Under the pieces are notes generated by a model. The model saw only the letters and a list, made by a program, of their open reading frames with translations. It ran no database searches and was not told the origin of the DNA. 49,453 nt of DNA, taken from the NCBI GenBank assembly GCA_017998165.1, contig JAGODO010000001.1, forward strand, positions 1-49,453, written 5' to 3'. The translations under genes were made by a program, and so were the position numbers. Below, piece after piece: positions 4,608 to 47,729 of the stretch (the stretch's first letter is position 1; every line of letters begins with the position of its first letter). The stretch is from Flavobacteriales bacterium. GTDB taxonomy: Bacteria; Bacteroidota; Bacteroidia; Flavobacteriales_F; PHOS-HE28.

Positions 4608-5420
4608 CTATCGGATCCTCCCGCCCACCAGTTTCTTCGGAACCAAGGGTGGCCGCTTGTCGCGCAAGAAAACCCACTGGTCCTCCGAGCTCTCCTCCGG
4701 CGCGAAGCGATAGCCATCGCCATCGTACGCTTTGATCTTCTCGGGCTCCAGGATCCGGTGCTGGATGATGTGCCGTGCCATGGCCCCGCGTTGCTGCTTG
4801 GCGAAGACCATGACCACACCGTAGCCGCGCGGTCCCTTGTCCTTGAAGACGGGCGTGATCACCCTGCCTTTGAGGACATCGGGATTCACGGCGCTGAAAT
4901 ACTCGCTGCTCGCACAGTTGACCACCACGTTGGACTTCGTTGCCTTCAGATCGGCATTCAGTGCCTCGGTGATACGGTCGCCCCAATACGCGTAGAGGTC
5001 CTTCGCTTTGCCCACCCCGAAAGGCGTGCCCATCATCAGGCGATAATCCTGCATGAGGTCGAGCGGACGCAGCACGCCATAGAGCCCGCTGAGGATACGC
5101 AGGTGGTGCTGGGCGAAATCGAGGTCCGCCGGGGAAAGGGTGCGCGCATCGAGTCCACGGTATACTTCGCCATTGAATGTGAAGACCGCCGGCCGGGCGT
5201 TCTTCGGCGTGAAGGGCGTGGACCACCGCTCGTAGCGCTCGCGGTTCAACTCCCCCAGCTTGGGGCTGAGGTCCATGAGCGAGGAGAGCTTCTTTGCGCT
5301 GAGGGTCTTCAGTTTCTCGACCAACTGGACCGCTTGTTCAAGAAGTACGGGCTTGGAAGTCCGCGCCACGACAGGCGTTTCCTGAGCGAGGTCCTTGGCG
5401 GGTGAAAGCAGCACGAGCAT
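4608..5420 (-). CDS. yaaA: Peroxide stress protein YaaA (UPF0246/DUF328)
   Basis: From the internal ATG the protein begins MLVLLSPAKDL, the hallmark YaaA N-terminus. It also has RILSGLYGVLRPLD and YAYWGD motifs. Length is about 270 aa. Confidence 0.85.
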   Translation of the reverse strand: MLVLLSPAKDLAQETPVVARTSKPVLLEQAVQLVEKLKTLSAKKLSSLMDLSPKLGELNRERYERWSTPFTPKNARPAVFTFNGEVYRGLDARTLSPADLDFAQHHLRILSGLYGVLRPLDLMQDYRLMMGTPFGVGKAKDLYAYWGDRITEALNADLKATKSNVVVNCASSEYFSAVNPDVLKGRVITPVFKDKGPRGYGVVMVFAKQQRGAMARHIIQHRILEPEKIKAYDGDGYRFAPEESSEDQWVFLRDKRPPLVPKKLVGGRIR

Positions 5421-5474
5421 GGGGGAAATGTAGTGGTCGCGCGGACCGGCCGCGATCCTTCTTTCCTTCGATGC

Positions 5475-5897
5475 ATGGACCGGTCCATTTGGTACGCGCT
5501 CATCTCCATGCTCTTCGCCGGGGTAACGGCCGTGATCGCCAAAGCGGGCATGCGCAATGTGAGCGGCGATGTCGCACTGGTGGTCCGCACGAGCCTGATC
5601 TTCCTGCTGGTCTGGGGCAATGCCGTGGCCTTCCGGCATGTGGGAAAGCTCCATCTGCTCACCGGCCGTGATCTGCTCTTCCTCGGCATCAGCGGTGCCA
5701 CCACCTTCCTCAGTTGGCTGTTCTACTACCGGGCCATCAAGGAGGGCCAGGTGTCCGTGGTGAACGCGATCGACAAAGCGAGTATCGTGGTGACCCTCGT
5801 ACTCTGTTTCGTGTTCCTGAAAGAACCGTTCACCTGGCGCGTCGCATCGGCCACCGTGCTCATCACTGCGGGCTTGCTCCTCCTCATCTGGAAGTAG
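5475..5897 (+). CDS. Small EamA/DMT-superfamily membrane transporter
   Basis: About 140 aa with four hydrophobic helices and EamA-like motifs (FAGVTAVIAKAG, VNAIDKASIVVT). Confidence 0.65.
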   Translation: MDRSIWYALISMLFAGVTAVIAKAGMRNVSGDVALVVRTSLIFLLVWGNAVAFRHVGKLHLLTGRDLLFLGISGATTFLSWLFYYRAIKEGQVSVVNAIDKASIVVTLVLCFVFLKEPFTWRVASATVLITAGLLLLIWK

Positions 5898-12630: not shown

Positions 12631-13557
12631 TCATGAGCTCGCCAGCACCAACCGTGCCTTCTCCTTTCCGAGACGGATCGTCGCGATCGCACCGGAGTTG
12701 AACTTGAGATGGTCCGCAGCGATGCCATCGGAAAAGATCACGCCCTTGTCCGGCATCAATGACGTGATGGTGATCTCCTGCCCTGCTTTCAATCTGCCTG
12801 TAGTGACGGCGATGCCCGAGCGCCGGCTCTGGAACGGCTCGCGCACCACGAACTGGAGTTCATTCTCCCCGAGTCCTTTCGACTTTCTGGCCTTTTCCTG
12901 CGGACCCCGAAGGAGGCCATTGGCCATGTTGTACATCGAACTCAGCCAGCCCGTGCTGCCAGAGCGCGTGGATACCAGGATACCCGATGAGCTCTGCTCC
13001 TCTTCTTCCGCTCCGAACGTGATGCGGTAACGCGCCGAGGTATGATCGCTGATACCGATGAAGAGGTCGTTGAAGGCGAGCAACCGCTGGCCGTCGTTGA
13101 GGCGCGCTTCAGCCAAGGACGCATCGCGGTGCATGTAGGCGCCAGCGACCACGCGTTCCACGGCAGCAAGACAGGTCGCGGAATTGAAAGGCAGCAGCAC
13201 ACCGTCGTAGCGCTCGGGGTCCGGGTTCACGCCGATCATGGGACGGCCGCCGACGTACTTCGCTGCGTTCGCCAGCAGGCCGTCCTGACCGATGGTGATC
13301 ACCACCTGATCGTCGCTGAAGATGAACGACGGCAGGAAGGCGCGCTCCACCACCTTGTTCTTGATCGTCCGCGCCAAACTCCGCTGCACCTCGTCCAACG
13401 CGGTGTGGAATGCGTCGTGTTCGCGCTCGTAGTCCGTGAAGTCGCCACCGTTGCGCTCGATGTAGAAGCGTGCCTGCGACCGCGTGTTGAAGCGTTCCAC
13501 GAGCATCTCCAGCCGCGTGCGGCCCCGAACGATGATCGCGTATTCGATCCGCGTCAT
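12631..13557 (-). CDS. Divergent NAD kinase-fold (NADK/DAGK/PFK superfamily) protein
   Basis: NADK motif I is degenerate: VITIGQDGLL instead of GGDGT. The motif III equivalent is ILVSTRSGSTGWLSS, versus the TPTGSTAY consensus. The start ATG overlaps the upstream SPFH stop (ATGA). Confidence 0.65.
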   Translation of the reverse strand: MTRIEYAIIVRGRTRLEMLVERFNTRSQARFYIERNGGDFTDYEREHDAFHTALDEVQRSLARTIKNKVVERAFLPSFIFSDDQVVITIGQDGLLANAAKYVGGRPMIGVNPDPERYDGVLLPFNSATCLAAVERVVAGAYMHRDASLAEARLNDGQRLLAFNDLFIGISDHTSARYRITFGAEEEEQSSSGILVSTRSGSTGWLSSMYNMANGLLRGPQEKARKSKGLGENELQFVVREPFQSRRSGIAVTTGRLKAGQEITITSLMPDKGVIFSDGIAADHLKFNSGAIATIRLGKEKARLVLASS

Positions 13558-14570
13558 TTCTTCTCCTCCTTGCGCAGCAGCTGCTCCAGCAATTCGGGAC
13601 TGATGTTCAGCGTGCCCACTTTCCCTGCGTTCTCCGCCAGCTCGCGGAAGGCCATGGCGATGTTGGAGCGCGCGTCCTGTTCACCGCGCAAGGCCATCAG
13701 CATGCGCCAGTCCATTTCCTTGTAGGGCTTCAGTGTGGTCTCCAGTACGTAGCCCTGCGCATCGGCCTCCTTGCGCTCGTTCGCCGTCTTCTGGTCGATC
13801 AACATCTTGCGCTGATCTTCCACCGCGATGTCCGCCTGCACCTTCAGTTCGCGCAGCTTGCGTTCGTTCTCGGCCTTCTGCACGTCGCTCTCCATCACCT
13901 TCTCAGCGATCTGTTTGCGCTTCTCCTCAACCGCGATCTCCGTGTTCAGCTCGCTTTCCTTGATCTTCCGCTCCTGCTCCACAGCGAAGTTCCGCCGCTC
14001 GTAGATGGCCTGGTCCGCTTCCTGCTGCAGCAGTTCGCGCGTCCCTGTCTCCAGCGCCCGCGCCATTTCCGGCGAGGCTTTCACCGCCAGCACATTCACG
14101 GAGAGCACCTCCACCCCTAGCGCCGCGATGGCCGCTGAGCCCTTGATCCCCGTGCGGATCTGCTCCTCGATGGCCTTCGCTGAACGGATCGCGTCCTTCA
14201 GCCCGATGCCGTGGATGTAAGAAGCGGTGGCCGTCTGCGCCTCGTTGATGATGCGCTGGTTCAGCTTCTCCAGGTCGTTCTTCTTGTAGATGCCCCGGCC
14301 GTCCACGGTGAAGTCGAGCAATAAGGCGAGCTGCTTGGCGTCGGCCACTTTGTAGCTCACCTGGCCTTGGATGGAGATGCTCTGGTGATCACGCGTGGTC
14401 TCCGCGAAGATGAAGGGCAGGTCGTTGCTGCCCAACGGGATCGCCGCGATGGAGCTGCTGGGGGCGAAGTAGAAGAAGGACAGGCCCCTGCCTTCCTGCA
14501 CCACTTGGCCGTTCTTGTAGTGGATGACGTGCGTCATCGCGTCGAAGCTGATGTACTTGATGCCGAACAT
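13554..14570 (-). CDS. SPFH/band-7 (flotillin/stomatin-like) domain protein with long coiled-coil tail
   Basis: The N-terminal SPFH-like core runs FYFAPSSSIAAIPLG...GVEVLSVNVLAVKASPEMARALE. It is followed by a Glu/Lys/Ala-rich heptad region (ERKIKESELNTEIAVEEKRKQIAEK...). Confidence 0.8.
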   Translation of the reverse strand: MFGIKYISFDAMTHVIHYKNGQVVQEGRGLSFFYFAPSSSIAAIPLGSNDLPFIFAETTRDHQSISIQGQVSYKVADAKQLALLLDFTVDGRGIYKKNDLEKLNQRIINEAQTATASYIHGIGLKDAIRSAKAIEEQIRTGIKGSAAIAALGVEVLSVNVLAVKASPEMARALETGTRELLQQEADQAIYERRNFAVEQERKIKESELNTEIAVEEKRKQIAEKVMESDVQKAENERKLRELKVQADIAVEDQRKMLIDQKTANERKEADAQGYVLETTLKPYKEMDWRMLMALRGEQDARSNIAMAFRELAENAGKVGTLNISPELLEQLLRKEEKK

Positions 14571-14665: not shown

Positions 14666-15382
14666 TCAGGCTCCGGGGCGACGAAGAATGAACTTGCGCT
14701 GAACATTCTGACGAACATCCATACACAGCAATACGCCATCGAGGACCGGCCCGGTCTTCGACAGCAGCTTCAACACCTCGTTCGCTTGCAGGCTGCCGAT
14801 CACCGCGCAGGTGGTGGGCATGATGCCGGTATTCGCGCAGTTGAGCAACGCATCCGCGTAGAAGGCCGACAAGTCAAAGGCCTCGCGCAGGTGGAAGCCC
14901 CGCAGATGGTGGAGCACGGTGACGTAGCCCTCCCATCCCTGCGCGGTAGCGAAGGCCAGCGGAATGCGGTGCCCGCCGCAGGCAGCGTCGATGGCGAAGC
15001 GCGCTTCCAGGTTGTCCGTGCAATCGCAGACCACATTGCGGTCGGCGACCATGTGCGCCAGTACCTCGGTGAACGGCTCGGTGATGGCCTGGATACGGAC
15101 ATCCGGGTTCTGGATCTTCAACCGTTCGGCGAGCACGGCCGCTTTGAATGCGCCGACATCTTCATGTGCGAATTGGAACTGCCGGTGCAGGTTCGTCACG
15201 TCCACACGGTCCGGATCCATGATGGTGATCGAGCCGACACCAGCAGCGGCGAGCAACGTGGCAACGGACGTACCCAAGCCACCAGCACCGATGATCAGTA
15301 CACGTCCGTCGAGCAGCTTCGCCTGGGCTTCTTCACCGAAGCCTTCCACCGCGATCTGCTGCGTGTAGCGCGCCCCGCTCAC
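14666..15382 (-). CDS. ThiF/MoeB/HesA-family E1-like adenylyltransferase (short form, no zinc CxxC pairs, no rhodanese domain)
   Basis: Motifs present: RYTQQI, the Rossmann loop LIIGAGGLGTSVA, MDPDRVDVTNLHRQ, VCDCTDN, and the crossover-loop Cys region NCANTGIMPTTCAVIGSLQANEVLK. The GTG start overlaps the TGA of the upstream ORF (GTGA). Confidence 0.85.
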   Translation of the reverse strand: MSGARYTQQIAVEGFGEEAQAKLLDGRVLIIGAGGLGTSVATLLAAAGVGSITIMDPDRVDVTNLHRQFQFAHEDVGAFKAAVLAERLKIQNPDVRIQAITEPFTEVLAHMVADRNVVCDCTDNLEARFAIDAACGGHRIPLAFATAQGWEGYVTVLHHLRGFHLREAFDLSAFYADALLNCANTGIMPTTCAVIGSLQANEVLKLLSKTGPVLDGVLLCMDVRQNVQRKFILRRPGA

Positions 15383-17949
15383 TTCCGGTTGATCTGTGAA
15401 GTGATGGTACGGTCCGTGATCTTGTCGTCCTCAGCGAGCAGAAAGGCTTTGGAAATGATCACCGATAGACCAGAGTCACCTTCGAACGGCAGGAACAGGT
15501 TCTGTGTCGGCGCTTTGCTGCGGTCCGGTACGATGCACAGATACTGGTCGTTCGGCTCCATCAGGATGTTCGTGCTTCCAAGGTGGATCTTGTAGGTGCG
15601 GATCTTGCCTTTCACCACGAGGAATTTGTCCTGGATGCTGGAGACCTTGGCGATCTTCAAGCGCGGTAACAGGCCGGTGAGGATCTCCTTACGCGTCTTC
15701 GCCACTTCACCCAGATCACCGAAGGAGTAGCTCTGCCAATAGTCGCGGTAGCCCGGCAATGCGCCACCGCTGTCCTGCCATTCGGGATCGTTGCCCACGC
15801 TGGCCACGCCCACGAAGAGGTCCACATCGCGCATCACCTCACTGAAAGCCACCACCGGAACATCCACCAGGTCCATCGGATCCTCGTAGCCGATGCGCCC
15901 GAAACGCACCTGGTCCGTGGCCATGTAGGTCCAGATGCCCGTGTCGTTCGTCGCACCATCGGCGTTCACCTCGTTCAACCAGAACTGCGCGCCGATGCCG
16001 TGATCGGGCAGCGAAACGCTCGCCCATGACCCGTCCTGCCCGTTGTCGAATGCGCCCTGCAAGGCGTACTTCCAGCCGCGGGCCTTGGCCAGCGAGTTGA
16101 ACTGGTGCTGCTTGAGCAGATGCGCTGCCATGCGGTTGCTGTAACTGCGCGTGTTCATCTCCGCGTCCGTCAGCAGATACACCTCTCGGTACGCCTGTTT
16201 CAGCGGTTGGCGGATCTCACGCGCCATCATGAACTCGCGCCATGTGCGGACATCCGCGACGCTCGCCGTGGCTGGATGCCAAAGCGAAACGGACATCGTA
16301 TCCATCGGCGTGAAGGCGTCACCCTTCATGGTCGTCCATGCGCCGTCGACAAGGATGGCAGGCATGATGCGTTCTCCGTCATGGAAATTCCAGATGATGC
16401 GATTCGCCAGGAAGCCGAGCAGTCCATGTTCCACGAAATGCTCCCGGAAGTATGGCATTGCCATAACGCGCGTGCTCCGGAACATCCGGTCGATGCGGTC
16501 GCGCTGCGCGGTGGTGCCCAGGTCCACTTGCTTTACCGCGTCCTTCATCTTCTTCAGCTTGGCGGCGTGGCCTTCCTTCACCGCTGCGGGCACCGATTTC
16601 TGGGGCGTTCCATCGGGCTTCCGCCACTCCAGTTCGCTATCGCCGGGACCGGTCACGGTGAGCGTGGCGGTGTAGCCGTCGAAGTCCCATGCGCGCGACC
16701 CGTCCTTCAATCCCAGGTCATCGCAGGCCTGATCCTCGATCTCGTACACCGTGATGCCCTTGTCCGCCGCCGCTTCCGCGAGGTACCTATCGATCAGTGC
16801 CACCGTGCTGCTCTGCTTGATGCGCAGTTTCAAGCGGCTCAATTGCCCGATACCGTCCAAGCCCTTCGAGCGAAACAAGGTGAAGAGGCACGCGTTACCC
16901 ACAGCCATCGCGGCAGGGCCTTGTTGCGGGATCTTCCGGAAGCTCCGTTCCGCCAGTGCCGCAACCGTGGTGATCGTGCGCGCATCATGGAAGTGCGCGC
17001 ACATCCACACCAGACCCTTCAGCAGATCCATGCTCTGCGTGTGCAGGAACTCCGTGGTGGTGTAGGTCTGCTCGCGTCCGTTGTAGCGGTGAACGTGTTC
17101 CGTGGTCTTTTCCTTCAGTTTGATGACGAAGTCGAACCAGGTCATCACCTGTTGCTTGAACGCGTCCGCGCCCGGGCCGTCGATCAGGGTGCGGGATGCC
17201 GCGAGGTACTTCTCGCTCGGCTTGGATCCGCTCGCTTTCATGGCGTGGCCCAGGATCGGGTACCATTTGTCCCGCAACTCCGGTGACATCGCTTGTACCG
17301 CACTGTTCACTTCCGGAACGAACGGATCATCGCCTTTGATGAGCACCGGATGCACCTCGCCTTCCCCCGCCGGTCCCGCGATGATGGCGTTGATGCGGTC
17401 GATCAGCTTGATCCGCTCCTTCTCGCTCGAATAGTTGGTCGATCCGTTTACCGTGATCCGCGTCGCGATCAGCGTCGCGCGCAGTCCATCCGAAACGGGC
17501 TTCGCCTTGTGCTGGCGTTCGATGTGCGTGAACAGCATCCCGATCGGCCACGATAGCAAGTTGACGTTTCCCCAACGGCCGTGGGTCGAGAACGTGTCCA
17601 ACAAGCGCGCGACATCCGCGTCGTCCACTACCAGCGACGCCCGAAGTACCTGTTGCACCAAGGCGATGCGGAACTCATTCCGCATGTGGTCATCACTACC
17701 GAATGTGATCGAACGCCTACCGCTCTGCCATTGATGGGTGGCGCGAGCCAAGTAGTCGAGCAGGTCAACGCGCTTCTTGTCCGGCCACGTGGACACTGCT
17801 TCCGTCCAGGCCTTCATCGACGCGACCTTCAGGCCCGCATAGTTTCCACCGTTGGCCCGATGTTCCGCTTCCAGGTCGGCGATCACCCGATCATATTCCG
17901 GATGACCGCCCAAGCCGATGGCGCTCTTCAGTTTGTCCAGCAATCCCAT
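15379..17949 (-). CDS. Large (856 aa) uncharacterised protein, DUF4132-like (MolR/YehI-type) C-terminal two thirds
   Basis: Coding is clear: it is translationally coupled on both sides. The segments HGLLGFLANRIIWNF, WHPATAS...REIRQPLKQAYREVYLLTDAE and KIRTYKIHLGSTNILMEPNDQYLCIVPD...LFLPFEGDSGLSVIISKAFLLAEDDKITD match my recollection of DUF4132-containing proteins. I saw no E2 HPN-Cys or JAMM motif. Confidence 0.55.
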   Translation of the reverse strand: MGLLDKLKSAIGLGGHPEYDRVIADLEAEHRANGGNYAGLKVASMKAWTEAVSTWPDKKRVDLLDYLARATHQWQSGRRSITFGSDDHMRNEFRIALVQQVLRASLVVDDADVARLLDTFSTHGRWGNVNLLSWPIGMLFTHIERQHKAKPVSDGLRATLIATRITVNGSTNYSSEKERIKLIDRINAIIAGPAGEGEVHPVLIKGDDPFVPEVNSAVQAMSPELRDKWYPILGHAMKASGSKPSEKYLAASRTLIDGPGADAFKQQVMTWFDFVIKLKEKTTEHVHRYNGREQTYTTTEFLHTQSMDLLKGLVWMCAHFHDARTITTVAALAERSFRKIPQQGPAAMAVGNACLFTLFRSKGLDGIGQLSRLKLRIKQSSTVALIDRYLAEAAADKGITVYEIEDQACDDLGLKDGSRAWDFDGYTATLTVTGPGDSELEWRKPDGTPQKSVPAAVKEGHAAKLKKMKDAVKQVDLGTTAQRDRIDRMFRSTRVMAMPYFREHFVEHGLLGFLANRIIWNFHDGERIMPAILVDGAWTTMKGDAFTPMDTMSVSLWHPATASVADVRTWREFMMAREIRQPLKQAYREVYLLTDAEMNTRSYSNRMAAHLLKQHQFNSLAKARGWKYALQGAFDNGQDGSWASVSLPDHGIGAQFWLNEVNADGATNDTGIWTYMATDQVRFGRIGYEDPMDLVDVPVVAFSEVMRDVDLFVGVASVGNDPEWQDSGGALPGYRDYWQSYSFGDLGEVAKTRKEILTGLLPRLKIAKVSSIQDKFLVVKGKIRTYKIHLGSTNILMEPNDQYLCIVPDRSKAPTQNLFLPFEGDSGLSVIISKAFLLAEDDKITDRTITSQINRK

Positions 17950-17951
17950 CG

Positions 17952-18341
17952 CTATCCGCCCACCAACGGCGTAAGTTTCACGAAGCTGATGCGCGTGCTC
18001 TTGCTCAGGCGCACTTCCTCTTCCAGCGTTTCGGCCTGCCGGTCATCCACCAGCATGAAGAAGACGTTGCGCGTGAACGCATCCAGCGCGACGTACACCT
18101 GCTTCTCGCCGTCCACCGCGCGCTTGTTCTTCAGCTTGAAGCCGTTCAGCGTGCGCTCGGCATCACTGGGCTCCACAAGGCCATTGAAGAACTCCGGGCG
18201 CTTATCGTTGTAACGCCGCACTTCTTCCAGCACGCGGGCTTCGATGATGTCCCGGACGGTAACGAGCTCACTGGCGAATTCCAGTTCGATCTCGTTCAGG
18301 ATGTCCCCGGCGAAGGTCTCGTCCTTGATGGCGATGAGCAT
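17952..18341 (-). CDS. Ubiquitin-like/MoaD-ThiS-like candidate, 129 aa, ending in Gly-Gly-stop
   Basis: ATG start. The C-terminus ...RISFVKLTPLVGG is followed directly by TAG. The N-terminal strand-strand-helix pattern (MLIAIKDE, ILNEIELEF, VTVRDIIEARVLEEV) is consistent with a beta-grasp. It lies 2 nt upstream of the next ORF and two genes from the E1. Confidence 0.6.
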   Translation of the reverse strand: MLIAIKDETFAGDILNEIELEFASELVTVRDIIEARVLEEVRRYNDKRPEFFNGLVEPSDAERTLNGFKLKNKRAVDGEKQVYVALDAFTRNVFFMLVDDRQAETLEEEVRLSKSTRISFVKLTPLVGG

Positions 18342-18564
18342 ACGTGGTGCGCCGAGGCCCGGCGCTGGTATCAGGTTGTTGTGTTCAGCGCGTCGAAGAT
18401 GCGCGATCGCTCGATGCCGACCACCAGCACCGGGTTGAAGTGATCATGTGGGGAAGATCGTCATCCATGAACGACAGGCGTCCGTTCCATGGAAAGAGTT
18501 GTTCCAGTTCAACGCGCCATCCCCGTCCCTGTACCAATTTCAACCCATCAAACCCGACCCGACC

Positions 18565-19458
18565 ATGAGCACATACCTGATCCTCGGCGCCACCGGCAAC
18601 ACCGGCAAACCCATCGCGCAAGGGCTTCTCGACAAGGGGCACACTGTCCGCATCCTCGTGCGTGACGCCGCCAAAGCCAAGGAACTCACCGATCAAGGCG
18701 CGGTCCTGTTCCAAGGCGATGCCATCGACAGCGACCTGTTGAAGCGCGCCCTTGCCGGAGCGGACGCGGCCTATTTCCTGGTGCCGCCCAGCTGGGGCGC
18801 TGAGGACTTCTCGGCCCACCAACGGGAGCATGTGGACGCGTTCACCCGAGCGCTGCGTGGCTCGGGCGTGAACCATGTGGTGACCCTCAGCAGCATCGGC
18901 GCGCACCTGTCGGAAGGCAACGGCGTGGTACAGGGTCTGCACTACATGGAGCAGGCGCTGAACGGCATCAGCGGGTTGAACAGCCTGCATCTGCGTTCCA
19001 CCTATTTCATGGAGAACAACCTCGGCGGCGCGGGCATGGTCAAGAACATGGGCCTGATGGGGGGGGCCGTTCGCCCCGACCTGAAACTCCCCATGGTGGC
19101 CACGCGCGATGTCGCCGCAAAGGCCCTTGATCACCTCCTGAAGCTCGACTTCGACGGCCATGGCCACGAATACGTGCTCGGGCCCCGGGAAGTCACGCTT
19201 CCTGAAGTTGCAGGCGTGCTGGGGGCCGCGATCGGCCAACCCGACCTGAAGTATGCCCAGTTCCCTTACGACCAGGCCGCACAGGGCATGATGCAGATGG
19301 GTGCCAGCGCGAGCATGGCCCAGCGCATGATGGAGTTCGTGGAGTGTTTGAATTCCGGGAGGATCCTTGAAGAGGCCCGCCGCGATGCGGTGAACACCAC
19401 GCCGACGGACATCAAGGAATTCGCACCGGTGTTCAAAGCGGTGTACGAGATGAACTGA
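18565..19458 (+). CDS. NmrA-family / NAD(P)-binding atypical SDR protein
   Basis: From the internal ATG the protein begins MSTYLILGATGNTGKPIAQGLL (Rossmann GxxGxxG). The rest has NmrA-like architecture. Confidence 0.8.
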   Translation: MSTYLILGATGNTGKPIAQGLLDKGHTVRILVRDAAKAKELTDQGAVLFQGDAIDSDLLKRALAGADAAYFLVPPSWGAEDFSAHQREHVDAFTRALRGSGVNHVVTLSSIGAHLSEGNGVVQGLHYMEQALNGISGLNSLHLRSTYFMENNLGGAGMVKNMGLMGGAVRPDLKLPMVATRDVAAKALDHLLKLDFDGHGHEYVLGPREVTLPEVAGVLGAAIGQPDLKYAQFPYDQAAQGMMQMGASASMAQRMMEFVECLNSGRILEEARRDAVNTTPTDIKEFAPVFKAVYEMN

Positions 19459-19559: not shown

Positions 19560-20000
19560 ATGCCCATCACACGCAGAGCCACCGCCACTTGGAGCGGCAC
19601 TGGCAAAGAAGGCTCCGGAGCCGTTACCACCACGAGCGGAGTGCTCAACAACACGCCGCATTCGTTCCTCACGCGTTTCGTGAGCGAGGACGGCAAGGCC
19701 GGCACCAACCCGGAGGAACTGGTCGCCGCCGCGCATGCGAGTTGCTTCACCATGAAGCTGAGCTTCGTGCTGAACGCCGCCGGCTTCACACCTGACAAGT
19801 TGGAGTGTACCGCCAACGTGAAGATGGACAAGGTGGGCGACGGCAATGGCGTGGTGGGCATCCACCTCGAGTTGAAAGGCACCGTGCCCGGCATCGATGC
19901 GGCGAAGTTCCAAGCCTGCGCGGAGGACGCGAAGGCGAATTGCCCGATCAGCCAGTTGCTGAAGAGCGTGCCGATCACGCTGAGTGCGACGTTGGGCTGA
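19560..20000 (+). CDS. osmC: OsmC family peroxiredoxin
   Basis: Both conserved Cys contexts are present (AAHASCFTM and KANCPIS). Length is 146 aa. Confidence 0.85.
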   Translation: MPITRRATATWSGTGKEGSGAVTTTSGVLNNTPHSFLTRFVSEDGKAGTNPEELVAAAHASCFTMKLSFVLNAAGFTPDKLECTANVKMDKVGDGNGVVGIHLELKGTVPGIDAAKFQACAEDAKANCPISQLLKSVPITLSATLG

Positions 20001-41141: not shown

Positions 41142-42113
41142 TCAGGAAGGCAAGCGCTCGGGCGCTTCCACGGGCGTGAAGTCGCTCAGCTTGTTCAGGT
41201 CCAATCGCATGGTGCCTTCCTTGGAGCTGAAGGCACGCACGTATCGGCCGCCCCAAACGATCTCATCGAAACGGAACGAGTGCCGCGTGATCACCTGTTG
41301 CATATAGCCTTCGTCGATGCCCTTCAGTACGAGGATCACCTCCGCGCGGCGTTGGATCAGGTCGGTGTTGGAGATCCCCGCGAGCGGGCTGTCCGGTAAA
41401 ATGGGATGCACCAGTGTCCAGCTCAAGGGCAGGAAGCTCACCTTGTCGAACTGCAACTTCAGGTTGTAGTAGTTCAGGCGTTCGCCCTGGTCGTCCACGT
41501 CAGCCATGACCAGCATCAAGCGGGCTTCCATTTCCATCAGCAAGGTGGTGCGTCGATTCGCCAGGCGCAGTTGCAAGCTCCAACCGTCCTTGAACGGAGC
41601 GATGAGCGCCTTATCACTGTATGCGATGCGCGTGGTGGGCCGTGCGAAGCGCGCATAGATCACCGCACTTATGAGCGAGAAGCCGAGAATGCCGAACACA
41701 CCTTCCACAGCGGCGAGGATCCATGTGGCCGGACTGTTCGGGTAAAGCGAACCGTAGCCCACGGTGGTCAGCGTTTGCACGCTCATGCCGAGGGCGCTGA
41801 TCCAACGCGTAGTGAGCGAGGTCATGTCGGCATTGCCCATTTGCTCCACACCGATGAGCATGTAGAGCGACCCGAAGACAAGGTTCATGCTGATGTAGCC
41901 GAGCAGGAAAGTGAGCACCAAGCGCCACACCGGCATGGTGGCCAGTGCCACGAACCCCTCGCGCAGGCCGCTCACCTGACCGATGCGGTCCACCTGGAAC
42001 TTGCCGTCGCGCGCCATTACGCGCTCCAGCGGTCGCTCGAACGTGGTGCCGATGCCCGGGTCCTCGGTGCGGATCGCTCGGGTCTTGAAAGCTAACAGAG
42101 GGGTTATCGCCAT
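41142..42113 (-). CDS. Inward-rectifier-type K+ channel (KirBac-like)
   Basis: Two TM helices flank a pore helix and the selectivity filter SVQTLTTVGYGS. The cytoplasmic IRK_C-like beta-rich domain follows (ARFARPTTRIAYSDKALIAPFKDGWSLQLRLAN). Confidence 0.8.
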   Translation of the reverse strand: MAITPLLAFKTRAIRTEDPGIGTTFERPLERVMARDGKFQVDRIGQVSGLREGFVALATMPVWRLVLTFLLGYISMNLVFGSLYMLIGVEQMGNADMTSLTTRWISALGMSVQTLTTVGYGSLYPNSPATWILAAVEGVFGILGFSLISAVIYARFARPTTRIAYSDKALIAPFKDGWSLQLRLANRRTTLLMEMEARLMLVMADVDDQGERLNYYNLKLQFDKVSFLPLSWTLVHPILPDSPLAGISNTDLIQRRAEVILVLKGIDEGYMQQVITRHSFRFDEIVWGGRYVRAFSSKEGTMRLDLNKLSDFTPVEAPERLPS

Positions 42114-42165
42114 CGGGGTCGAAGATCGCAGCGAAAAACGGTTGGTGGTAGATGATCGGCGAGGC

Positions 42166-42185
42166 GGGCGACGAATTCGTCGCCC
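42166..42185 (-). terminator. Perfect 20-bp palindrome GGGCGACGAATTCGTCGCCC directly after the M14 peptidase stop
   Basis: It forms an 8-bp GC-rich stem with an AATT loop, starting 1 nt after the TAG at 42186-42188. A TTTTT run lies about 30 nt further downstream on the minus strand. Confidence 0.45.
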
Positions 42186-43907
42186 CTACTCCCCGATCAC
42201 CCGCAGCACGGGATACTTCCGGAACGACGGTTCGAAGTACGGCGAGCGCTGGTACACGAAGTACAGTTGCGCCCAAGCATCCTTGGCGAATGCGGGATCG
42301 GCTCTGCGCTTGGCTTCGAGCGCGGCTTTCAACGCTGGTTCTTTCTTCAACAGATCCGCAGCGATGTCCTCAAAGACGTAATCGCTGAACCATTCCTTCT
42401 GCTGCAGCGCGCTATCGAAGAAGCCCCACGCGAAGTAGCTGTCCTCCCCTTCCGGTTCCAGCGTTTCCATGATGAGGCGATCCGTGACCTGTCCAGTGCG
42501 CACCAGATAGTCACCGGCAACGGCCGAGTGCTCCCCGCGTTGTGATGAGCAGCGGATATCCCGGTGGAGATGGTGCCCTTCGTACGGCTGTTGCCCTGTC
42601 TTGAACTCCGCGATGCTGTCCACTTCCACGGTGAAGGATCGTTCGCGGTCGAGATGTTCGACCTTGACACCGTTGATCTCCAAGCGCTGCACGATCGCCG
42701 CCGCCCAGGCCTGCGGGATGATGTAGCCCAGCGGCTTCCGCTTGATGAGCGAAGGGGCGTAGTGGTCGCGCCAAGGGACTTTCGTATCCGTGGGCCGTGT
42801 GTGATCATAGCGGATCCTCGGCAGCCCCGTCAGTTCGCTGGTCGTGTGTTCAGCCGCCCAGCCCTTCCACGGCAGGGGCTCCACATGCGTCGTATCGAGC
42901 ACCCAGTTCAGGCCGATCTCATCCATGGAAGCCGTGTGCTTCTTCGCGGCGGTCCGCGCTTTCCGCAGTTCCTCCGGATGCTCGTTCATCGCAGCGAGCG
43001 TTGCCAGCATGAGTTGGAAGGTGGCGTTCACCCGATCCGCATACGGTTTCAACATGTGGCTTTCCGCCAGGATGCCGATGCGGTCGAACAGCGCGTTGTA
43101 GCCCGTACTGTAGCGAGGGCTGTCATAGAACCCCACGAGCCCCTCCTCGGGCGTATCACCCTCCGTCTCGAAGTAGGGGCACATCAACATGTTCTTGCTG
43201 TTCATCCACTCATACAGCCGTGGCATCATCATACCCGTCATGAATGCGCTGAGCCCTCCATCGAGCTTGTCCTTCTGTGTGGTCAGCAATTCCATCAGGT
43301 ACTGGTGATCGGCACCGTCGCTCACGTGCGTTTCGAAGTAGACATCGGGATCCATGATATTCAGCGCTTCGGCCATGGTCCACATGTTACGGGAGTCCGT
43401 CTTGATGAAGTCACGGTTCAGGTCCAGGTTGCGCGCGTTGCCACGGAAGCCGTAAGCCAACGGTCCATCCTGATTCGCGCGGCTGAAGGAACCGCGTCGC
43501 TTCGCACCGCTCACATTGTACATGGGTACGATGCACACCGCCGTATGCACGGTGAGGCCCATCAGCTGGTCGCTTTCCAGCAGCGCTTGCGCGAGCAGCA
43601 AGCTCGCGTCCACACCATCGGGTTCACCCGGATGGATGCCGTTGGTGATCCAGAGAATGTTCTTCCCTGCAGCACGGATGCTGTCCGGCGTGGAACCACT
43701 CCCGTCCGAAATGATGAACACATGGATCGGTGAACCGTCGTCGTCCTCTCCGATCTCGAAGAGAGCTGCTCCGGAGTGCATGCGGTCCAACTCCTGATAG
43801 CGGGCGATGGCTTGCTCCCAGGTAGCGGAGGAATCCCTGGAGAATGTCCATTGCGCGAAGCATCGGACCGTGAGCACGGCAAGGATCAGGGCTGAACAGG
43901 GGCGCAT
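42186..43907 (-). CDS. M14 family zinc carboxypeptidase (secreted)
   Basis: Start at the internal ATG, giving signal peptide MRPCSALILAVLTVRCFAQ. Zn motif ITNGIHPGEPDG (HxxE), plus NLDLNRDF and FETHVSDG. The 236-aa upstream extension in the track overlaps the sixA-like gene on the other strand and is rejected. Confidence 0.8.
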   Translation of the reverse strand: MRPCSALILAVLTVRCFAQWTFSRDSSATWEQAIARYQELDRMHSGAALFEIGEDDDGSPIHVFIISDGSGSTPDSIRAAGKNILWITNGIHPGEPDGVDASLLLAQALLESDQLMGLTVHTAVCIVPMYNVSGAKRRGSFSRANQDGPLAYGFRGNARNLDLNRDFIKTDSRNMWTMAEALNIMDPDVYFETHVSDGADHQYLMELLTTQKDKLDGGLSAFMTGMMMPRLYEWMNSKNMLMCPYFETEGDTPEEGLVGFYDSPRYSTGYNALFDRIGILAESHMLKPYADRVNATFQLMLATLAAMNEHPEELRKARTAAKKHTASMDEIGLNWVLDTTHVEPLPWKGWAAEHTTSELTGLPRIRYDHTRPTDTKVPWRDHYAPSLIKRKPLGYIIPQAWAAAIVQRLEINGVKVEHLDRERSFTVEVDSIAEFKTGQQPYEGHHLHRDIRCSSQRGEHSAVAGDYLVRTGQVTDRLIMETLEPEGEDSYFAWGFFDSALQQKEWFSDYVFEDIAADLLKKEPALKAALEAKRRADPAFAKDAWAQLYFVYQRSPYFEPSFRKYPVLRVIGE

Positions 43908-43988
43908 GCGACGAAGATGGGGATCGGGCCCTGACCATGTTCCGGACACCCTTACTTTGGTATGCCCCGCCAAAGCGGGATGGGACAC

Positions 43989-44492
43989 ATGCGTACCCTC
44001 TACCTCACCCGCCACGCGAAGAGTTCCTGGGATGATCCAGCAACGGACGATTTCCATCGGCCACTGAATGACCGGGGCGAGCGCGATGCGCCGTTCATGG
44101 CCCGGGTGTTCAAGGAGCGCGGCGAGCCCTTGGACCGTTTGGTCAGCAGCCCGGCCGTGCGCGCGATCACCACCTGCAGGATCTTCGCCAAGTCGCTCGG
44201 TGTTGCGGAAACGGCGATCACGCAGGACAAAGGGATCTACCTCGCACCTACCGAAATGCTGCTCCGCATCGTGAACCTGTTGAACGACGACTGGCAGCGC
44301 GTAATGCTCTTCGGGCACAACCCCGGCTTCACGGACCTGGCCCAATACATCAGCGATGCCGACATCGGCGAGATGGCCACCTGCGCCACCGCGCGCATCG
44401 ACTTCACCGTGGACTCCTGGGCCGAAGTGAGCATGGGGCTTGGCACACTCGTCTGGCACGACTACCCCAAGAGACACCCGGAGCTCAAGTAG
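43989..44492 (+). CDS. sixA: Histidine phosphatase superfamily protein (SixA-like)
   Basis: LYLTRHAKS (RHG/RHA catalytic motif) and FGHNPG. Length about 167 aa. Confidence 0.75.
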   Translation: MRTLYLTRHAKSSWDDPATDDFHRPLNDRGERDAPFMARVFKERGEPLDRLVSSPAVRAITTCRIFAKSLGVAETAITQDKGIYLAPTEMLLRIVNLLNDDWQRVMLFGHNPGFTDLAQYISDADIGEMATCATARIDFTVDSWAEVSMGLGTLVWHDYPKRHPELK

Positions 44493-44536
44493 GAAGTGGA
44501 AAGTAGAAAGTGAGGACGATGCGCTTTCCACTTTCC
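44492..44536. terminator. Hairpin between convergent genes (GGAAGTGGAAAG ... CTTTCCACTTTCC)
   Basis: Near-perfect 12-bp inverted repeat (one bulge), spanning the gap between the + gene ending at 44492 and the - gene ending at 44542. Confidence 0.4.
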
Positions 44537-44541
44537 ACCTA

Positions 44542-45882
44542 TCACTCGGAGACCTTTTCCCGATAGATGCTCCGTTTCTGCAGGCTCTCGAAGGGCCGAT
44601 ACACGTAGTACACATGGCCGTCGAATACCTGCGTGCGCTCCGGGTAGCGGTATGTGAGCCGGACGCGTTCGCCGAGCTTTCCGCTTACCGGATCGATGGC
44701 GCGCAACCATTGATAGCCATTGCGCTGGAACACGGCGAACAGGGCGCCGCGTGCCCGATCCTGGATCACACGCCCCGACCAGTCGCGTCCTTCCACCTTC
44801 GAGAGATAAGGAAGCGGAACGTGGCCGACCTCCTTCGGGTCCCGGGTGAATTTCCGTAACCGGGCCGAAGCGTGGTCGAACACGAGCATCGTATCGCCCA
44901 CGACGAACAGCGGCGCGTACACAGGCTTGAACCATACGTTGTGCTGGAATCCGCTCATGTAGCCGGCTACGACCTCCTTGTCCACACCGAGTTCCGATGC
45001 CAGGTTCATCGCCACCACCTTCTCGGGTCCCTTCAGGTACTTGTACTCGCTGCGGAAAAGCGACAGCATGAAGGTGTCCATCACCGTGCAGACCACGCGC
45101 ACGGAATCGTTCACAGGGTCATAGGCGAGGTGATCGAAGACGGGCATCACCAGGTCGCTGTTGCTGCCCAGCACCCATCCCGGTATGCTGTCGGTCCAGG
45201 GCAGCACCTTGTCTTGCAAGTCCTTTAGACCGAAGGGTACCAACTCGATGTCATCCGCGGTACGCGCCACGCCGAACGCGCGGGAGGTCCCTTCGATGAC
45301 GACCGTGTTGCGCAGATCGCGCCGCAGGCCGAGCACCTCTTCAGGCACGGGGCAGCTCGCGTACTCGCGATAGTTGGAATCCAACAGGACGAGCCGGACA
45401 TCGCGCAGGATCTCCTTGCCGGCATCTCCCTCGGCCCGCAGCATGCGTGGATGCTCGTACGCCAGCACCCAGATGCCTTCCTCGTTGATGAGCAGGTCCG
45501 CGGCGTGGAGATCCGCGCGCTGGAAGATCACCTCGGGCTTGCGCGTTACAACGACCGGCTCCAGTTCCGTGGAGGTCAGGCGGACGGTCATCGTGCTCTT
45601 TGGCCGTTGATCCCAGCGAACCTGCACCGTCCTCGTCCTGTAGCTAGGCGCACTGAAAACAATGTCCACGCGAACATCCGTCAGTTGCCGCACGAGGCAG
45701 AACCCCTTGTCATCCGTCAACCCGTGCATGGTCGCCCCCTGATCGGTCCAGGTCAAGCTGACGTTCCCGATAGGTGCGCCTTCCAGACTGTCCAGCACGG
45801 TGAACCCGATGGTGCGCGGTTGCGCCATCGCGAACTGGCCCACGAACAGGGCACAAAAAGCCGCACACCATCCCCGCATCAT
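44542..45882 (-). CDS. Hypothetical secreted protein with N-terminal carboxypeptidase-regulatory-like domain
   Basis: Signal peptide MMRGWCAAFCALFVGQFAMAQ. The next ~90 aa fit a CarboxypepD_reg-like beta-sandwich pattern (GFTVLDSLEGAPIGNVSL...GFCLV). The rest is unassigned. Confidence 0.6.
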   Translation of the reverse strand: MMRGWCAAFCALFVGQFAMAQPRTIGFTVLDSLEGAPIGNVSLTWTDQGATMHGLTDDKGFCLVRQLTDVRVDIVFSAPSYRTRTVQVRWDQRPKSTMTVRLTSTELEPVVVTRKPEVIFQRADLHAADLLINEEGIWVLAYEHPRMLRAEGDAGKEILRDVRLVLLDSNYREYASCPVPEEVLGLRRDLRNTVVIEGTSRAFGVARTADDIELVPFGLKDLQDKVLPWTDSIPGWVLGSNSDLVMPVFDHLAYDPVNDSVRVVCTVMDTFMLSLFRSEYKYLKGPEKVVAMNLASELGVDKEVVAGYMSGFQHNVWFKPVYAPLFVVGDTMLVFDHASARLRKFTRDPKEVGHVPLPYLSKVEGRDWSGRVIQDRARGALFAVFQRNGYQWLRAIDPVSGKLGERVRLTYRYPERTQVFDGHVYYVYRPFESLQKRSIYREKVSE

Positions 45883-45953
45883 CGCGCGTTCTACCTTCAC
45901 GATGCGAAATTCGTGCGGATCGCACATCGGCCCCACCACCCGCTCCTGACCAC

Positions 45954-46475
45954 ATGCACCGCCCCGCAGCGCGCGACCACTACGCCACGCTCGGCCTGCG
46001 ACGCTCCTCGAGCGCACAGGAGATCAAGCGCGCCTACCGCGATCTGGCCAAGCAATGCCACCCGGACATCGACCCATCGCCCCAGGCCGGAGCGCGCTTC
46101 ATGGCCGTTCACGCCGCATACGCCACGCTCAGTGACCCCATGTTACGTATCGCCTACGATGCTCAACTCGCGGATCGCGACCGCCGTGACATGCCCAGAC
46201 CACGTCCGGAACGCTCTGATGCCCCACCACGCTATCGTCAGCGGCAGGAGGAACCGGAGCCGGACATGAACGTACGTTCCTGGGCATTCATCGGCTTGCA
46301 TCTCACCGGCCTGCTCTTCGGCTCCTTGCTCGTGTTGACCCTGCTGGGCGGCATCACCTTCCGCGGCTGGTCGTGGGGCTGGGTGATCTTCATCGCTCCG
46401 GGATTGATCGTGATCCCGGATGCGTGGGCAGGATTGATGATGGTCGCGAAGCGCAAACGCCCGGCTCAGGCCTGA
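45954..46475 (+). CDS. J-domain (DnaJ-like) membrane protein
   Basis: DHYATLGLRRSSSAQEIKRAYRDLAKQCHPD (HPD motif), followed by two C-terminal TM helices. Confidence 0.75.
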   Translation: MHRPAARDHYATLGLRRSSSAQEIKRAYRDLAKQCHPDIDPSPQAGARFMAVHAAYATLSDPMLRIAYDAQLADRDRRDMPRPRPERSDAPPRYRQRQEEPEPDMNVRSWAFIGLHLTGLLFGSLLVLTLLGGITFRGWSWGWVIFIAPGLIVIPDAWAGLMMVAKRKRPAQA

Positions 46476-46541
46476 TCCATCGGCACGCCACCCCGGGAGA
46501 AGTGGTTCTCGTCTCGAGCTATCGGGGCTGGGAATGAGGAT

Positions 46542-47612
46542 TCAATTCACCGGCACCATCCATCCGAACGGATCGGCGATACGGCCCCGGCGGATGTCAT
46601 CCAGCGTCTGTCCGATTCGGTTGCTGAGCTTCCGTTCGGACACCGGAGGCAGTTCGTAGTCGACCCCGTCGTAGGCGATGCTGCGGATATGCGCGATGGT
46701 CGCTGCTGTGCCAGCACCGAACGCCGCTTTCAACCGGCCTTGTTTCAACGCGTCCACCACCTCCTTCACGCTTACACGGCGCACTTCCATCGGTATCTTC
46801 TCGTGCTGCGCGATGCGGATGATGCTGTCGCGCGTAACGCCGTGCAGGATCGTCCCGGTCGTTGCAGGTGTGAGCAGCGTATCGTCGATGCGGAAGAAGA
46901 CGTTCATCGTGCCGCTCTCCTCGAAGTAGGCATGTTCCTCGCCATCGGTCCAGAGCAACTGGTGATAGCCCTGGTCCGCCGCGAGCTTCGCGGGGTAAAG
47001 GGACGCGGCATAGTTGCCACCACACTTGGCCTCGCCCGTTCCTCCGGGGAACGCGCGACTGTATTCCGTCTCGATCTTCACACGCACCTCCTCCTTGTAG
47101 TACCCGCGCACCGGGCAGGTGAAGATGAGGAAGCGATAACCATCGCTGGGACGCACACCGATGTATTCATCGCTGGCGTAGAGCAACGGACGGATGTAGA
47201 GCGCACCCTCCTCGTCCGTTGGGATCCATCCGCTGTCGATGTCCACAAGGGTCTTCAGCGCTTCCATGAAGATATCCTCGGGGATCTCCGGCATGCACAT
47301 GCGGACGGCGCTGCGGTTCATGCGCTCGATGTTCGCCTGCGGTCGGAAGAGGCTCACCCGTCCGTCGGGGGTTTTGTAGGCTTTCAGGCCTTCGAAGATG
47401 GTCTGGCAATAATGAAGCACCAGGGACGCCGGGCTCATCTGCAGATCCGCGAACTCCGCGATGCGCGGCTGTTGCCATTGGCCGTCCTGGAAATCCATGA
47501 TGAACATGTGATCGCTGAAGACACGGCCGAACTTCACATCGTTCAGGTCCGTCTCCGGCAAGCGGCTCCGCTTCGTGCGCTCGATGGCTATCTTTTGCCC
47601 AGTGGTGATCAT
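46542..47612 (-). CDS. ilvE: Branched-chain amino acid aminotransferase
   Basis: From the internal ATG (MITTGQK). Class IV aminotransferase motifs are present (FEGLKAY, catalytic-Lys context EAKCGGNY, LTPATTGTILHGVTR). Confidence 0.9.
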   Translation of the reverse strand: MITTGQKIAIERTKRSRLPETDLNDVKFGRVFSDHMFIMDFQDGQWQQPRIAEFADLQMSPASLVLHYCQTIFEGLKAYKTPDGRVSLFRPQANIERMNRSAVRMCMPEIPEDIFMEALKTLVDIDSGWIPTDEEGALYIRPLLYASDEYIGVRPSDGYRFLIFTCPVRGYYKEEVRVKIETEYSRAFPGGTGEAKCGGNYAASLYPAKLAADQGYHQLLWTDGEEHAYFEESGTMNVFFRIDDTLLTPATTGTILHGVTRDSIIRIAQHEKIPMEVRRVSVKEVVDALKQGRLKAAFGAGTAATIAHIRSIAYDGVDYELPPVSERKLSNRIGQTLDDIRRGRIADPFGWMVPVN

Positions 47613-47729
47613 GGATACCTGTAGCTCTGTCGTCAAATGTAGCGCGGCCCGCTCGTGGCAAGGGTCCGCCGATGTCGCGATCCTACGGCATTTTTCAACG
47701 CTTTGATACACTCCGGCCATATTCGTCCT

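Follow-up and report, generated by a model that had tools for sequence, protein, structure and literature searches.

A bacterial cassette of a Gly-Gly-ended ubiquitin-like protein, a DUF4132-DUF7737 partner and a minimal E1, with a candidate cysteine acceptor

To our knowledge, every characterised bacterial ubiquitin-like pathway uses an E2 enzyme and a peptidase, and every known sulfur carrier feeds a recognisable biosynthetic enzyme. The archaeal SAMP-UbaA, Thermus TtuB-TtuC and eukaryotic Urm1-Uba4 systems serve in sulfur transfer as well as in protein conjugation, and as they do so independently of an E2, conjugation is conceivable where an E2 is missing. Research on bacterial ubiquitin-like pathways is active, and here we describe an operon that fits neither the E2/peptidase pathways nor the known sulfur-carrier pattern. 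It lies in a 49,453-bp stretch of DNA (hereafter the window), which is a whole contig of a Flavobacteriales metagenome-assembled genome, and consists of three tightly packed minus-strand genes that encode a small ubiquitin-like protein with a C-terminal Gly-Gly (Ubl), a large partner (BIG) and an adenylyltransferase of the ThiF/MoeB type (E1).

The account that we favour, tentatively and at somewhat less than an even chance, is that the E1 activates the Ubl and hands it to Cys805 of BIG, which would thus serve as a non-canonical acceptor or ligase. This account turns on a covariation between the tail of the small protein and one residue of the large one. Among the proteins compared, those whose Ubl has a free GG tail have cysteine at the Cys805 position: the 61 short forms, in which it is invariant and the sole invariant cysteine, four tandem paralogues of Rapidithrix, the proteins of Novosphingobium and Nonomuraea, and three long forms of Deinococcus. 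Where the tails are LSGRLW, LAGSIW and LAGSTY, in the long forms of Bacteroides finegoldii, Chondrinema and Fulvitalea, the position holds Ala, Ser and Asn, and at 51 gut-metagenome loci of the same clade as these long forms, with the tail L-[AST]-G-R-[LMI]-[WY], it is A, S, N or H and never Cys (the metagenome scan adds depth and few independent events, having returned mostly one gut-Bacteroides clade because its ranking followed the first query sequence). An Acetobacter plasmid homologue has no Ubl gene upstream and no cysteine. Since loss of the GG end coincides with loss of the cysteine, chemistry is favoured over docking alone, and the alignments point to a chemical link between the Ubl C-terminus and the BIG cysteine. 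The small open reading frame (ORF) upstream of the Acetobacter homologue was considered as a Ubl and rejected, having neither resemblance to the family nor a GG end.

The clade without the GG end is an observation in its own right. Its large proteins are long forms of about 1,690 residues (DUF5724+DUF4132+DUF7737) without the cysteine, and its small partners, ending in L-[AST]-G-R-[LMI]-[WY], have three conserved residues after the glycine. Members include the B. finegoldii plasmid (L089/L092), loci L096 and L099 and metagenome loci L100-L179; the clade is very common in human-gut metagenomes, with at least 567 confirmed stretches.

Examination of the family across genomes, with one genome taken per species, recovered the Ubl in 431 species, almost all of them Bacteroidota (1,821 clusters at 50% identity), and the best 80 loci were classified. 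The window order of Ubl, BIG and E1 occurs at 31 of these, a further 32 have Ubl and BIG and no E1 within 8 kb, four have a Ubl gene and no BIG found downstream, and at 13 the contig is too short to decide. In about 70 of the 80 loci the gene directly after the Ubl gene is BIG, and an E1 follows it in 31 of the roughly 64 that are informative. The first-pass annotation of this DNA had called for a test of whether the trio is conserved as such; conservation holds for 31 genomes, which span several Bacteroidota classes and keep both order and tight spacing (2 nt from Ubl to BIG in most loci, -4 to +4 nt from BIG to E1), and does not extend to the 32 pair-only loci. Recurrence of this family and of its spacing on such a scale goes well beyond chance. 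The invariant unit is the Ubl-BIG pair, and the E1 is dispensable at the locus. The two states are intermixed within Chitinophagaceae, Saprospiraceae and Flavobacteriaceae, which suggests that the E1 has been lost repeatedly. The pair with its GG end is also present in Novosphingobium, Nonomuraea and Deinococcus, so that a strict terminal GG spans four phyla, at loci with and without an E1. Clustering of all neighbouring ORFs of the 80 loci found no fourth conserved neighbour and, as had been claimed for the window, no E2, JAB peptidase, rhodanese or other sulfur-transfer partner, nor any thiamine or molybdenum cofactor (Moco) gene, either in the cassette or conserved beside it.

Several loci depart from the usual arrangement. 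Tandem BIG paralogues surround a single Ubl gene in Rapidithrix thailandica (four copies; L042 2530-13805) and in a Saprospiraceae metagenome-assembled genome (two; L061 2976-6931); all four Rapidithrix copies have the YLCIVPDR cysteine motif, as would be expected if a single Ubl served several partners that have diversified. A decayed cassette in Pedobacter sp. ASV1-7 (L010 8001-8617) retains the Ubl gene with its GG intact and has BIG reduced to its first ~68 codons. Loci L053 and L077 have a Ubl gene behind which no BIG homologue was detected, and their Ubl may be served by genes at another site in the genome. Finally, the 969-residue protein P0323, a high-G+C read-through, runs from a DUF4132 protein through an apparently frameshifted stretch into a GG-ended Ubl at residues 841-969; the usual gene order appears to be inverted there, with the Ubl gene following the large one.

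The Ubl is predicted to adopt a beta-grasp fold with a flexible GG tail. Its AlphaFold2 model, built with 54 homologues, is confident (predicted local distance difference test score, pLDDT, 88; predicted template modelling score, pTM, 0.84); it begins with two strands and a long helix, continues with an inserted hairpin and helix, and closes with three strands and a tail, residues 125-129, that is disordered. Nearly all Foldseek matches in the PDB are beta-grasp proteins (ubiquitin, SUMO, NEDD8, ISG15, Urm1, MoaD 1jwb_D, MOCS2A 5mpo_A and SAMP1 4hro_B among them), and these matches are weak, none being better than E 0.02, with target-normalised template modelling scores of 0.45-0.64. A Pfam search gave no family at E <= 0.1, no sequence similarity to ThiS, MoaD, ubiquitin, Urm1 or SAMP1 was found, and hhalign against ThiS, MoaD, Urm1 and SAMP1 gave probabilities below 0.1% (a weak test, with single-sequence templates). 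The fold assignment therefore rests on the model, which bears out the prediction made for this ORF beforehand. Sequence identity between Bacteroidota classes is 60-70%, and within the family alignment the tail F-x-K-L-T-P-L-[VI]-G-G is invariant (F-V-K-L-T-P-L-V-G-G in the window). Whether the terminal GG is invariant had likewise been set as a test. Of 120 close homologues 119 end in it, as do 143 of the 150 top-ranked distant ones; those that depart from it look truncated or frameshifted. Invariance fails only in the distant long-form clade that extends three residues past the glycine.

The large partner combines an N-terminal helical solenoid with an alpha/beta C-terminal half containing DUF4132 (133.7 bits against a gathering cut-off of 27) and DUF7737, the second of which the first-pass annotation had not named. 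The N-terminal region is the family's variable part, being replaced by a ~1,200-residue DUF5724 region in the long forms, which keep DUF4132 and DUF7737. Most of the invariant polar residues fall in the C-terminal half (H558, Q581, R588, E589, Y591, S604, R606, R624, R707, D710, R753, Y786, H789, S792, D825), and H789, G791, S792, P821 and D825 of DUF7737 are invariant across phyla. In the AlphaFold2 model of BIG (pLDDT 78.7), DUF7737 comprises a helix, a four-strand beta-meander, a conserved flexible loop that includes Cys805, and two helices; the two most conserved loops of the whole protein, 715-747 and 799-824, are modelled at low confidence. Searches of the full-text literature found no functional study of DUF4132, DUF7737 or DUF5724. 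Re-reading the window confirmed the ORF sizes, coordinates, Gly-Gly-stop codons, 2-nt gap and stop-start overlap that had been reported for the three genes, and Pfam upheld the naming of a DUF4132-like protein and a ThiF/MoeB-type E1 (Table 1).

Table 1. Positions in the window of the cassette genes, the domains of BIG and the two cysteine codons.
Feature	Position	Strand	Basis
Ubl gene, 129 aa	17952..18341	-	ORF; ends ...KLTPLVGG then TAG (GGC GGA TAG at 17960-17952)
BIG gene, 856 aa	15379..17949	-	ORF; ATG 2 nt past the Ubl TAG
E1 gene, 238 aa, ThiF/MoeB-type adenylyltransferase	14666..15382	-	GTG start overlaps the BIG TGA (GTGA, 15382-15379)
BIG residues 1-410, HEAT/ARM-like helical repeats	16720..17949	-	Model secondary structure, Foldseek
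BIG residues 447-626, DUF4132	16072..16611	-	PF13569, E 9e-39
BIG residues 750-853, DUF7737	15391..15702	-	PF24879, E 2e-40
BIG Cys805 codon, motif E-P-N-D-Q-Y-L-C-I-V-P-D-R; candidate acceptor of the Ubl C-terminus	15535..15537	-	Conservation, covariation with the Ubl tail
E1 Cys182 codon, crossover loop	14837..14839	-	Alignment to 1zud and 1jw9

The third protein belongs to the ThiF family (Pfam PF00899, E 2e-59) and carries the database annotation HesA/MoeB/ThiF, its next-best relatives being E1-rhodanese fusions, which in typical Bacteroidota are 340-380 residues long. Across 31 cassette orthologues the motif GxGGLG and residues D56, R67/Q68, K80, D119/D122 and R127 are conserved. Cys182 is invariant in the same 31 proteins and general to the wider family, and it aligns with the cysteine of 'nCrtaG' in E. 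coli ThiF (1zud) and of 'tCveaG' in MoeB (1jw9). Zinc CxxC motifs are absent from the aligned region of all 31, which measure 232-245 residues and have no extra domain. A neighbour-joining tree, built without bootstrap, groups the 31 cassette E1s with 14 short database proteins and leaves 85 MoeB/ThiF/MoeZ-like proteins outside this clade; the two of the 14 that were checked for context are both in trios. Moreover, E1 distances correlate with BIG distances (r = 0.88, Mantel 0/2000). Because the cassette E1s form their own clade and co-diverge with BIG, a chance housekeeping neighbour is unlikely, and the enzyme is probably dedicated to the cassette, as had been supposed. The E1-E2 models of PADLOC match it over only ~100-130 residues of the adenylation domain.

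The only family member with experimental data is a gene pair of D. radiodurans. DR_A0165 (134 aa) ends in LTALAGG and lies 2 nt upstream of DR_A0166, a long-form protein of 1,626 aa (DUF5724+DUF4132+DUF7737) with the cysteine motif FLCIVP; comparison of DR_A0165 with the window Ubl family by hhalign (probability 96.8%, E 2.7e-10) identifies the two genes, on sequence grounds, as homologous to the Ubl-BIG pair of the window. No E1 adjoins them. A radiation/desiccation response motif (RDRM) has been placed upstream of DRA0165, at -83, the putative drA0165-drA0166 operon is strongly up-regulated when DdrO is depleted, and the DRA0166 protein rises after mitomycin C in an IrrE-dependent manner (PMC8533742). 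Elsewhere DR_A0165 was described as the small ORF peptide SEP068184, induced by gamma rays and H2O2, whose deletion raises and whose overexpression lowers survival of H2O2, and which bound thioredoxin in a pull-down; this study judged it Deinococcus-specific, without an RDRM and outside the radiation/desiccation response regulon (PMC9650054). The two studies thus contradict each other on the RDRM, and neither noted a ubiquitin-like fold or a GG end, which the C-terminal tags used in PMC9650054 would mask. By analogy with this pair, the setting of the window cassette is likely to be a stress response. On the D. radiodurans megaplasmid (L091/L088, record 41666-49257), two YeeE/YedE-family genes and trxC precede the pair, and it is followed by a gene for a DUF99 protein and by genes for molybdate transport (modA); the sulfur/redox flavour of these neighbours could be significant or fortuitous.

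If the E1 does pass the Ubl to BIG, the process might run as follows. The minimal E1, with ATP, would adenylate the exposed C-terminal glycine of the Ubl, a step proposed because the chemistry of the ThiF/MoeB/E1 family is known and the catalytic motifs are intact. The activated C-terminus would then move, possibly by way of E1 Cys182, to Cys805 in the flexible DUF7737 loop of BIG, which, being encoded next to the Ubl, would be produced in parallel with it. BIG would act as a cysteine-dependent acceptor or ligase, with DUF4132 and DUF7737 as the catalytic module and the helical-repeat half as a binding platform, and the Ubl would end on BIG itself or on a bound client. At loci without an adjacent E1, a housekeeping enzyme of the MoeB/ThiF type would activate the Ubl.

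Several results weigh against this proposed hand-over. At half of the loci an E1 is missing from the vicinity, and the covariation comes from few independent events, the non-GG forms amounting to one Bacteroidota clade and the Ubl-less Acetobacter homologue. The Cys805 loop is itself a low-confidence part of the model. For BIG, a search with the whole model returned ARM/HEAT solenoids only and no PDB homologue was found either by sequence or by a profile of the C-terminal half, and an annotation of BIG from structure was accordingly abandoned. The topology of DUF7737 recalls UBC enzymes, yet its hhalign probability against seven E2s is 0.7%, and homology to E2s is for that reason not claimed. 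The closest solved structures to the E1 are E. coli ThiF and MoeB, about equally (E ~4e-37), and its best NCBIfam matches are ThiF, MoeB, MoeZ and UbaA; these are activators of sulfur carriers, though the E1 falls below every equivalog cut-off (for the UbaA model, 147 bits against 450). Crude k-mer counts over 81 regions 5' of the Ubl gene in Bacteroidota, finally, gave AT-rich words only and no shared upstream operator.

Nearly as probable, if still doubtful when taken on its own, is the explanation that the Ubl is a sulfur carrier. Here the E1 would adenylate the Ubl, a cysteine desulfurase or rhodanese whose gene lies elsewhere would donate sulfur to turn its C-terminus into a thiocarboxylate, and BIG would use the sulfur as ThiG does with ThiS or MoaE with MoaD, with Cys805 taking part in an acyl-disulfide or persulfide step. 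The affinities of the E1, both among NCBIfam and PDB entries and among the rhodanese fusions that come next in databases, agree with such a role, as does the alignment of Cys182 with the crossover-loop cysteine of ThiF; in E. coli that cysteine forms an acyl-disulfide with ThiS. No rhodanese, desulfurase, JAMM protein or known sulfur acceptor (ThiG, MoaE, CysM, TtuA) is conserved at the 80 loci, but donors could act in trans, and E. coli thiFS and moaD/moeB also depend on sulfur donors encoded elsewhere. The linkage pattern is likewise that of ThiS, with the carrier always beside the user protein and only sometimes beside the E1 (ThiS-ThiF linkage is ~20%; Iyer 2006), and the D. radiodurans evidence could be read in the same direction, both from the YeeE/YedE genes and trxC beside the pair and from the thioredoxin binding of DR_A0165 and the effect of its dosage on H2O2 survival (PMC9650054). 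The proteins themselves are less accommodating: BIG has no match to PP-loop, pyridoxal phosphate or radical-SAM families, no Fe-S-like cysteine cluster and just one invariant cysteine, and the Ubl, with its 129 residues, high identity across classes and no sequence resemblance to ThiS or MoaD, exceeds typical carriers in both size and constraint. The window also holds no thiamine, Moco or cysteine biosynthesis genes.

It is also conceivable, if unlikely, that the Ubl is a non-covalent subunit, that is, a stoichiometric regulator of BIG whose tail plugs a pocket of DUF4132/DUF7737, with the E1 as an accessory modulator in some lineages or a relic and covalent transfer inessential. A pair that is universal while half of the loci go without an E1 would then be expected, and the distances between the genes are compatible with translational coupling and synthesis in a 1:1 ratio; a terminal GG strictly retained in four phyla, whether or not an E1 is present, is harder to reconcile with it, as is a dedicated clade of E1s that has its catalytic residues intact and is co-inherited with the pair. 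The clade with the conserved non-GG tail (xG-R-[LM]-W) cuts both ways: because it keeps the pair, the partnership must survive without an activatable C-terminus, but in this very clade the GG and the cysteine have been lost together. That the most conserved BIG loops are disordered in the isolated model is as expected of segments that fold on a partner.

The remaining explanation, that the E1 is an ordinary ThiF/MoeB enzyme beside an unrelated two-gene operon, has in its favour the HesA/MoeB/ThiF annotation and good, though sub-cut-off, scores against ThiF/MoeB models, and is highly improbable given that the three genes keep one order, their stop and start codons overlapping or abutting, in 31 species from several classes, and given also a separate clade of short E1s without zinc motifs, a divergence that tracks BIG, the lack of thi or moa genes nearby, and the rhodanese fusions that are typical of its Bacteroidota relatives.

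The surroundings of the cassette are ordinary chromosomal genes, in a window whose G+C content (~61%) is even throughout and in which Pfam searches and the annotation of neighbours found no thiamine, Moco or cysteine biosynthesis genes. Some neighbours have an oxidative-stress flavour: a divergent gene for an NmrA-like NAD(P)-binding protein lies upstream of the Ubl gene (18448-19458, plus strand), followed by one for an OsmC-like peroxiredoxin (19560-20000, plus strand), and the gene for a YaaA peroxide-stress protein lies ~10 kb from the cassette (4608-5654, minus strand). These genes are not conserved at other loci, and the link is anecdotal. Downstream (12631-14570, minus strand), with an ATGA overlap, are genes for an SPFH/Band-7 protein (338 aa) and for a 308-aa protein with weak similarity to NAD kinases. 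This module adjoins the trio in the window, in a close relative (L008 11718-13648) and in Carboxylicivirga (L094 871-2826), where the copies are 59% and 51% identical, in opposite orientation, and beside a NUDIX/NrtR regulator; it matches nothing in PADLOC or PHROGs. Because it occurs at only two further loci of more than 80, being absent from about 78 others, the two genes were rejected as parts of the system and set aside as a separate module.

A defence system or a phage origin was also considered and rejected, PADLOC matching only the E1 adenylation domain and the neighbours being ordinary chromosomal genes; tblastn against 50,697 phage records found nothing of the cassette, and PHROGs gave one weak DUF4132 match. 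Neither the operon catalogue of Iyer et al. 2006 nor PADLOC contains the trio architecture, which also departs from the schemes for Bil and Bub operons in the Corbett-lab preprints, in agreement with the initial impression that it corresponds to no known bacterial Ubl operon.

What these comparisons provide is a first concrete and testable biochemical context for DUF4132 and DUF7737, which now have a Ubl as partner, an E1 and a cysteine that is a candidate for catalysis. They also place DR_A0165, published as a "small peptide" of the Deinococcus stress response, among the GG-ended ubiquitin-like proteins, with its gene just upstream of DR_A0166, and they draw attention to a related non-GG variant common in human-gut Bacteroides. 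Were the cysteine a thioester acceptor, it would define a new type of ligase; were the system to carry sulfur, a new sulfur-dependent product would remain to be found. In its broadest form, which we regard as possible and on balance doubtful, the proposal is that DUF4132+DUF7737 founds a new class of cysteine-dependent Ubl acceptor or ligase, unrelated in sequence to UBC, HECT, RBR and NEL, and that with a GG-ended Ubl and a minimal E1 it makes up a further bacterial ubiquitination-like pathway across Bacteroidota, Deinococcota, Pseudomonadota and Actinomycetota, one that acts in the response to DNA damage and oxidative stress rather than in phage defence.

Set beside known systems, the cassette resembles ThiS-ThiF and MoaD-MoeB in joining a small beta-grasp protein with a free Gly-Gly to an adenylyltransferase of ~240 residues from the same family, in keeping the crossover-loop cysteine, and in tying the carrier more closely to its user protein than to the E1. 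Unlike those systems, its Ubl is about twice as large and has no ThiS/MoaD sequence signal, its E1 lacks both zinc CxxC pairs and is sub-cut-off in NCBIfam, and its user protein, with DUF4132 and DUF7737, is unrelated to ThiG or MoaE and has no thiamine or Moco context. SAMP-UbaA, TtuB-TtuC and Urm1-Uba4 likewise pair a MoeB-type E1 with a GG-ended beta-grasp protein and have no E2 or E3; their E1s, however, keep zinc motifs and/or a rhodanese and serve several carriers, and they are not known to have an obligatory large partner with a covarying cysteine and usually include a JAMM protease.

In Bil, Bub and type II CBASS (cyclic oligonucleotide-based anti-phage signalling system; Cap2/Cap3), a Ubl or Ubl-like C-terminus is also activated by the E1 of a compact operon, and the adenylation domain of the cassette E1 matches E1-E2 models of PADLOC. 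Many Bub operons are tied to DNA-damage-responsive regulators (PMC11601603). In all three, however, the operon invariably includes an E2, on its own or fused to the E1, together with a peptidase, neither of which the cassette shows, and the cassette E1, the only one of its proteins to match PADLOC, groups with ThiF/MoeB and not with Cap2/BilD.

E. coli YehI/MolR has DUF4132 in common with BIG (YehI BLASTP E 1e-11, BIG residues 341-604), and the citation of molR as a member of the LexA regulon (PMC8533742) is again a link to DNA damage. DUF4132 is the only shared part, since YehI lacks DUF7737, the cysteine loop and a Ubl partner, and the WGR, MoxR, VWA and SWIM genes of the yeh cluster have no counterpart in BIG or among its neighbours; YehK, considered as a possible Ubl, is unrelated and has no GG end. 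The D. radiodurans pair, by contrast, shares with the cassette a GG-ended small protein encoded 2 nt upstream of a DUF4132+DUF7737 protein with the same cysteine motif, and differs in its long-form partner with an N-terminal DUF5724 and in having no adjacent E1. We see the trio as a form of the known theme of a Ubl joined to an E1, with a real chance that BIG represents a new type of ligase.

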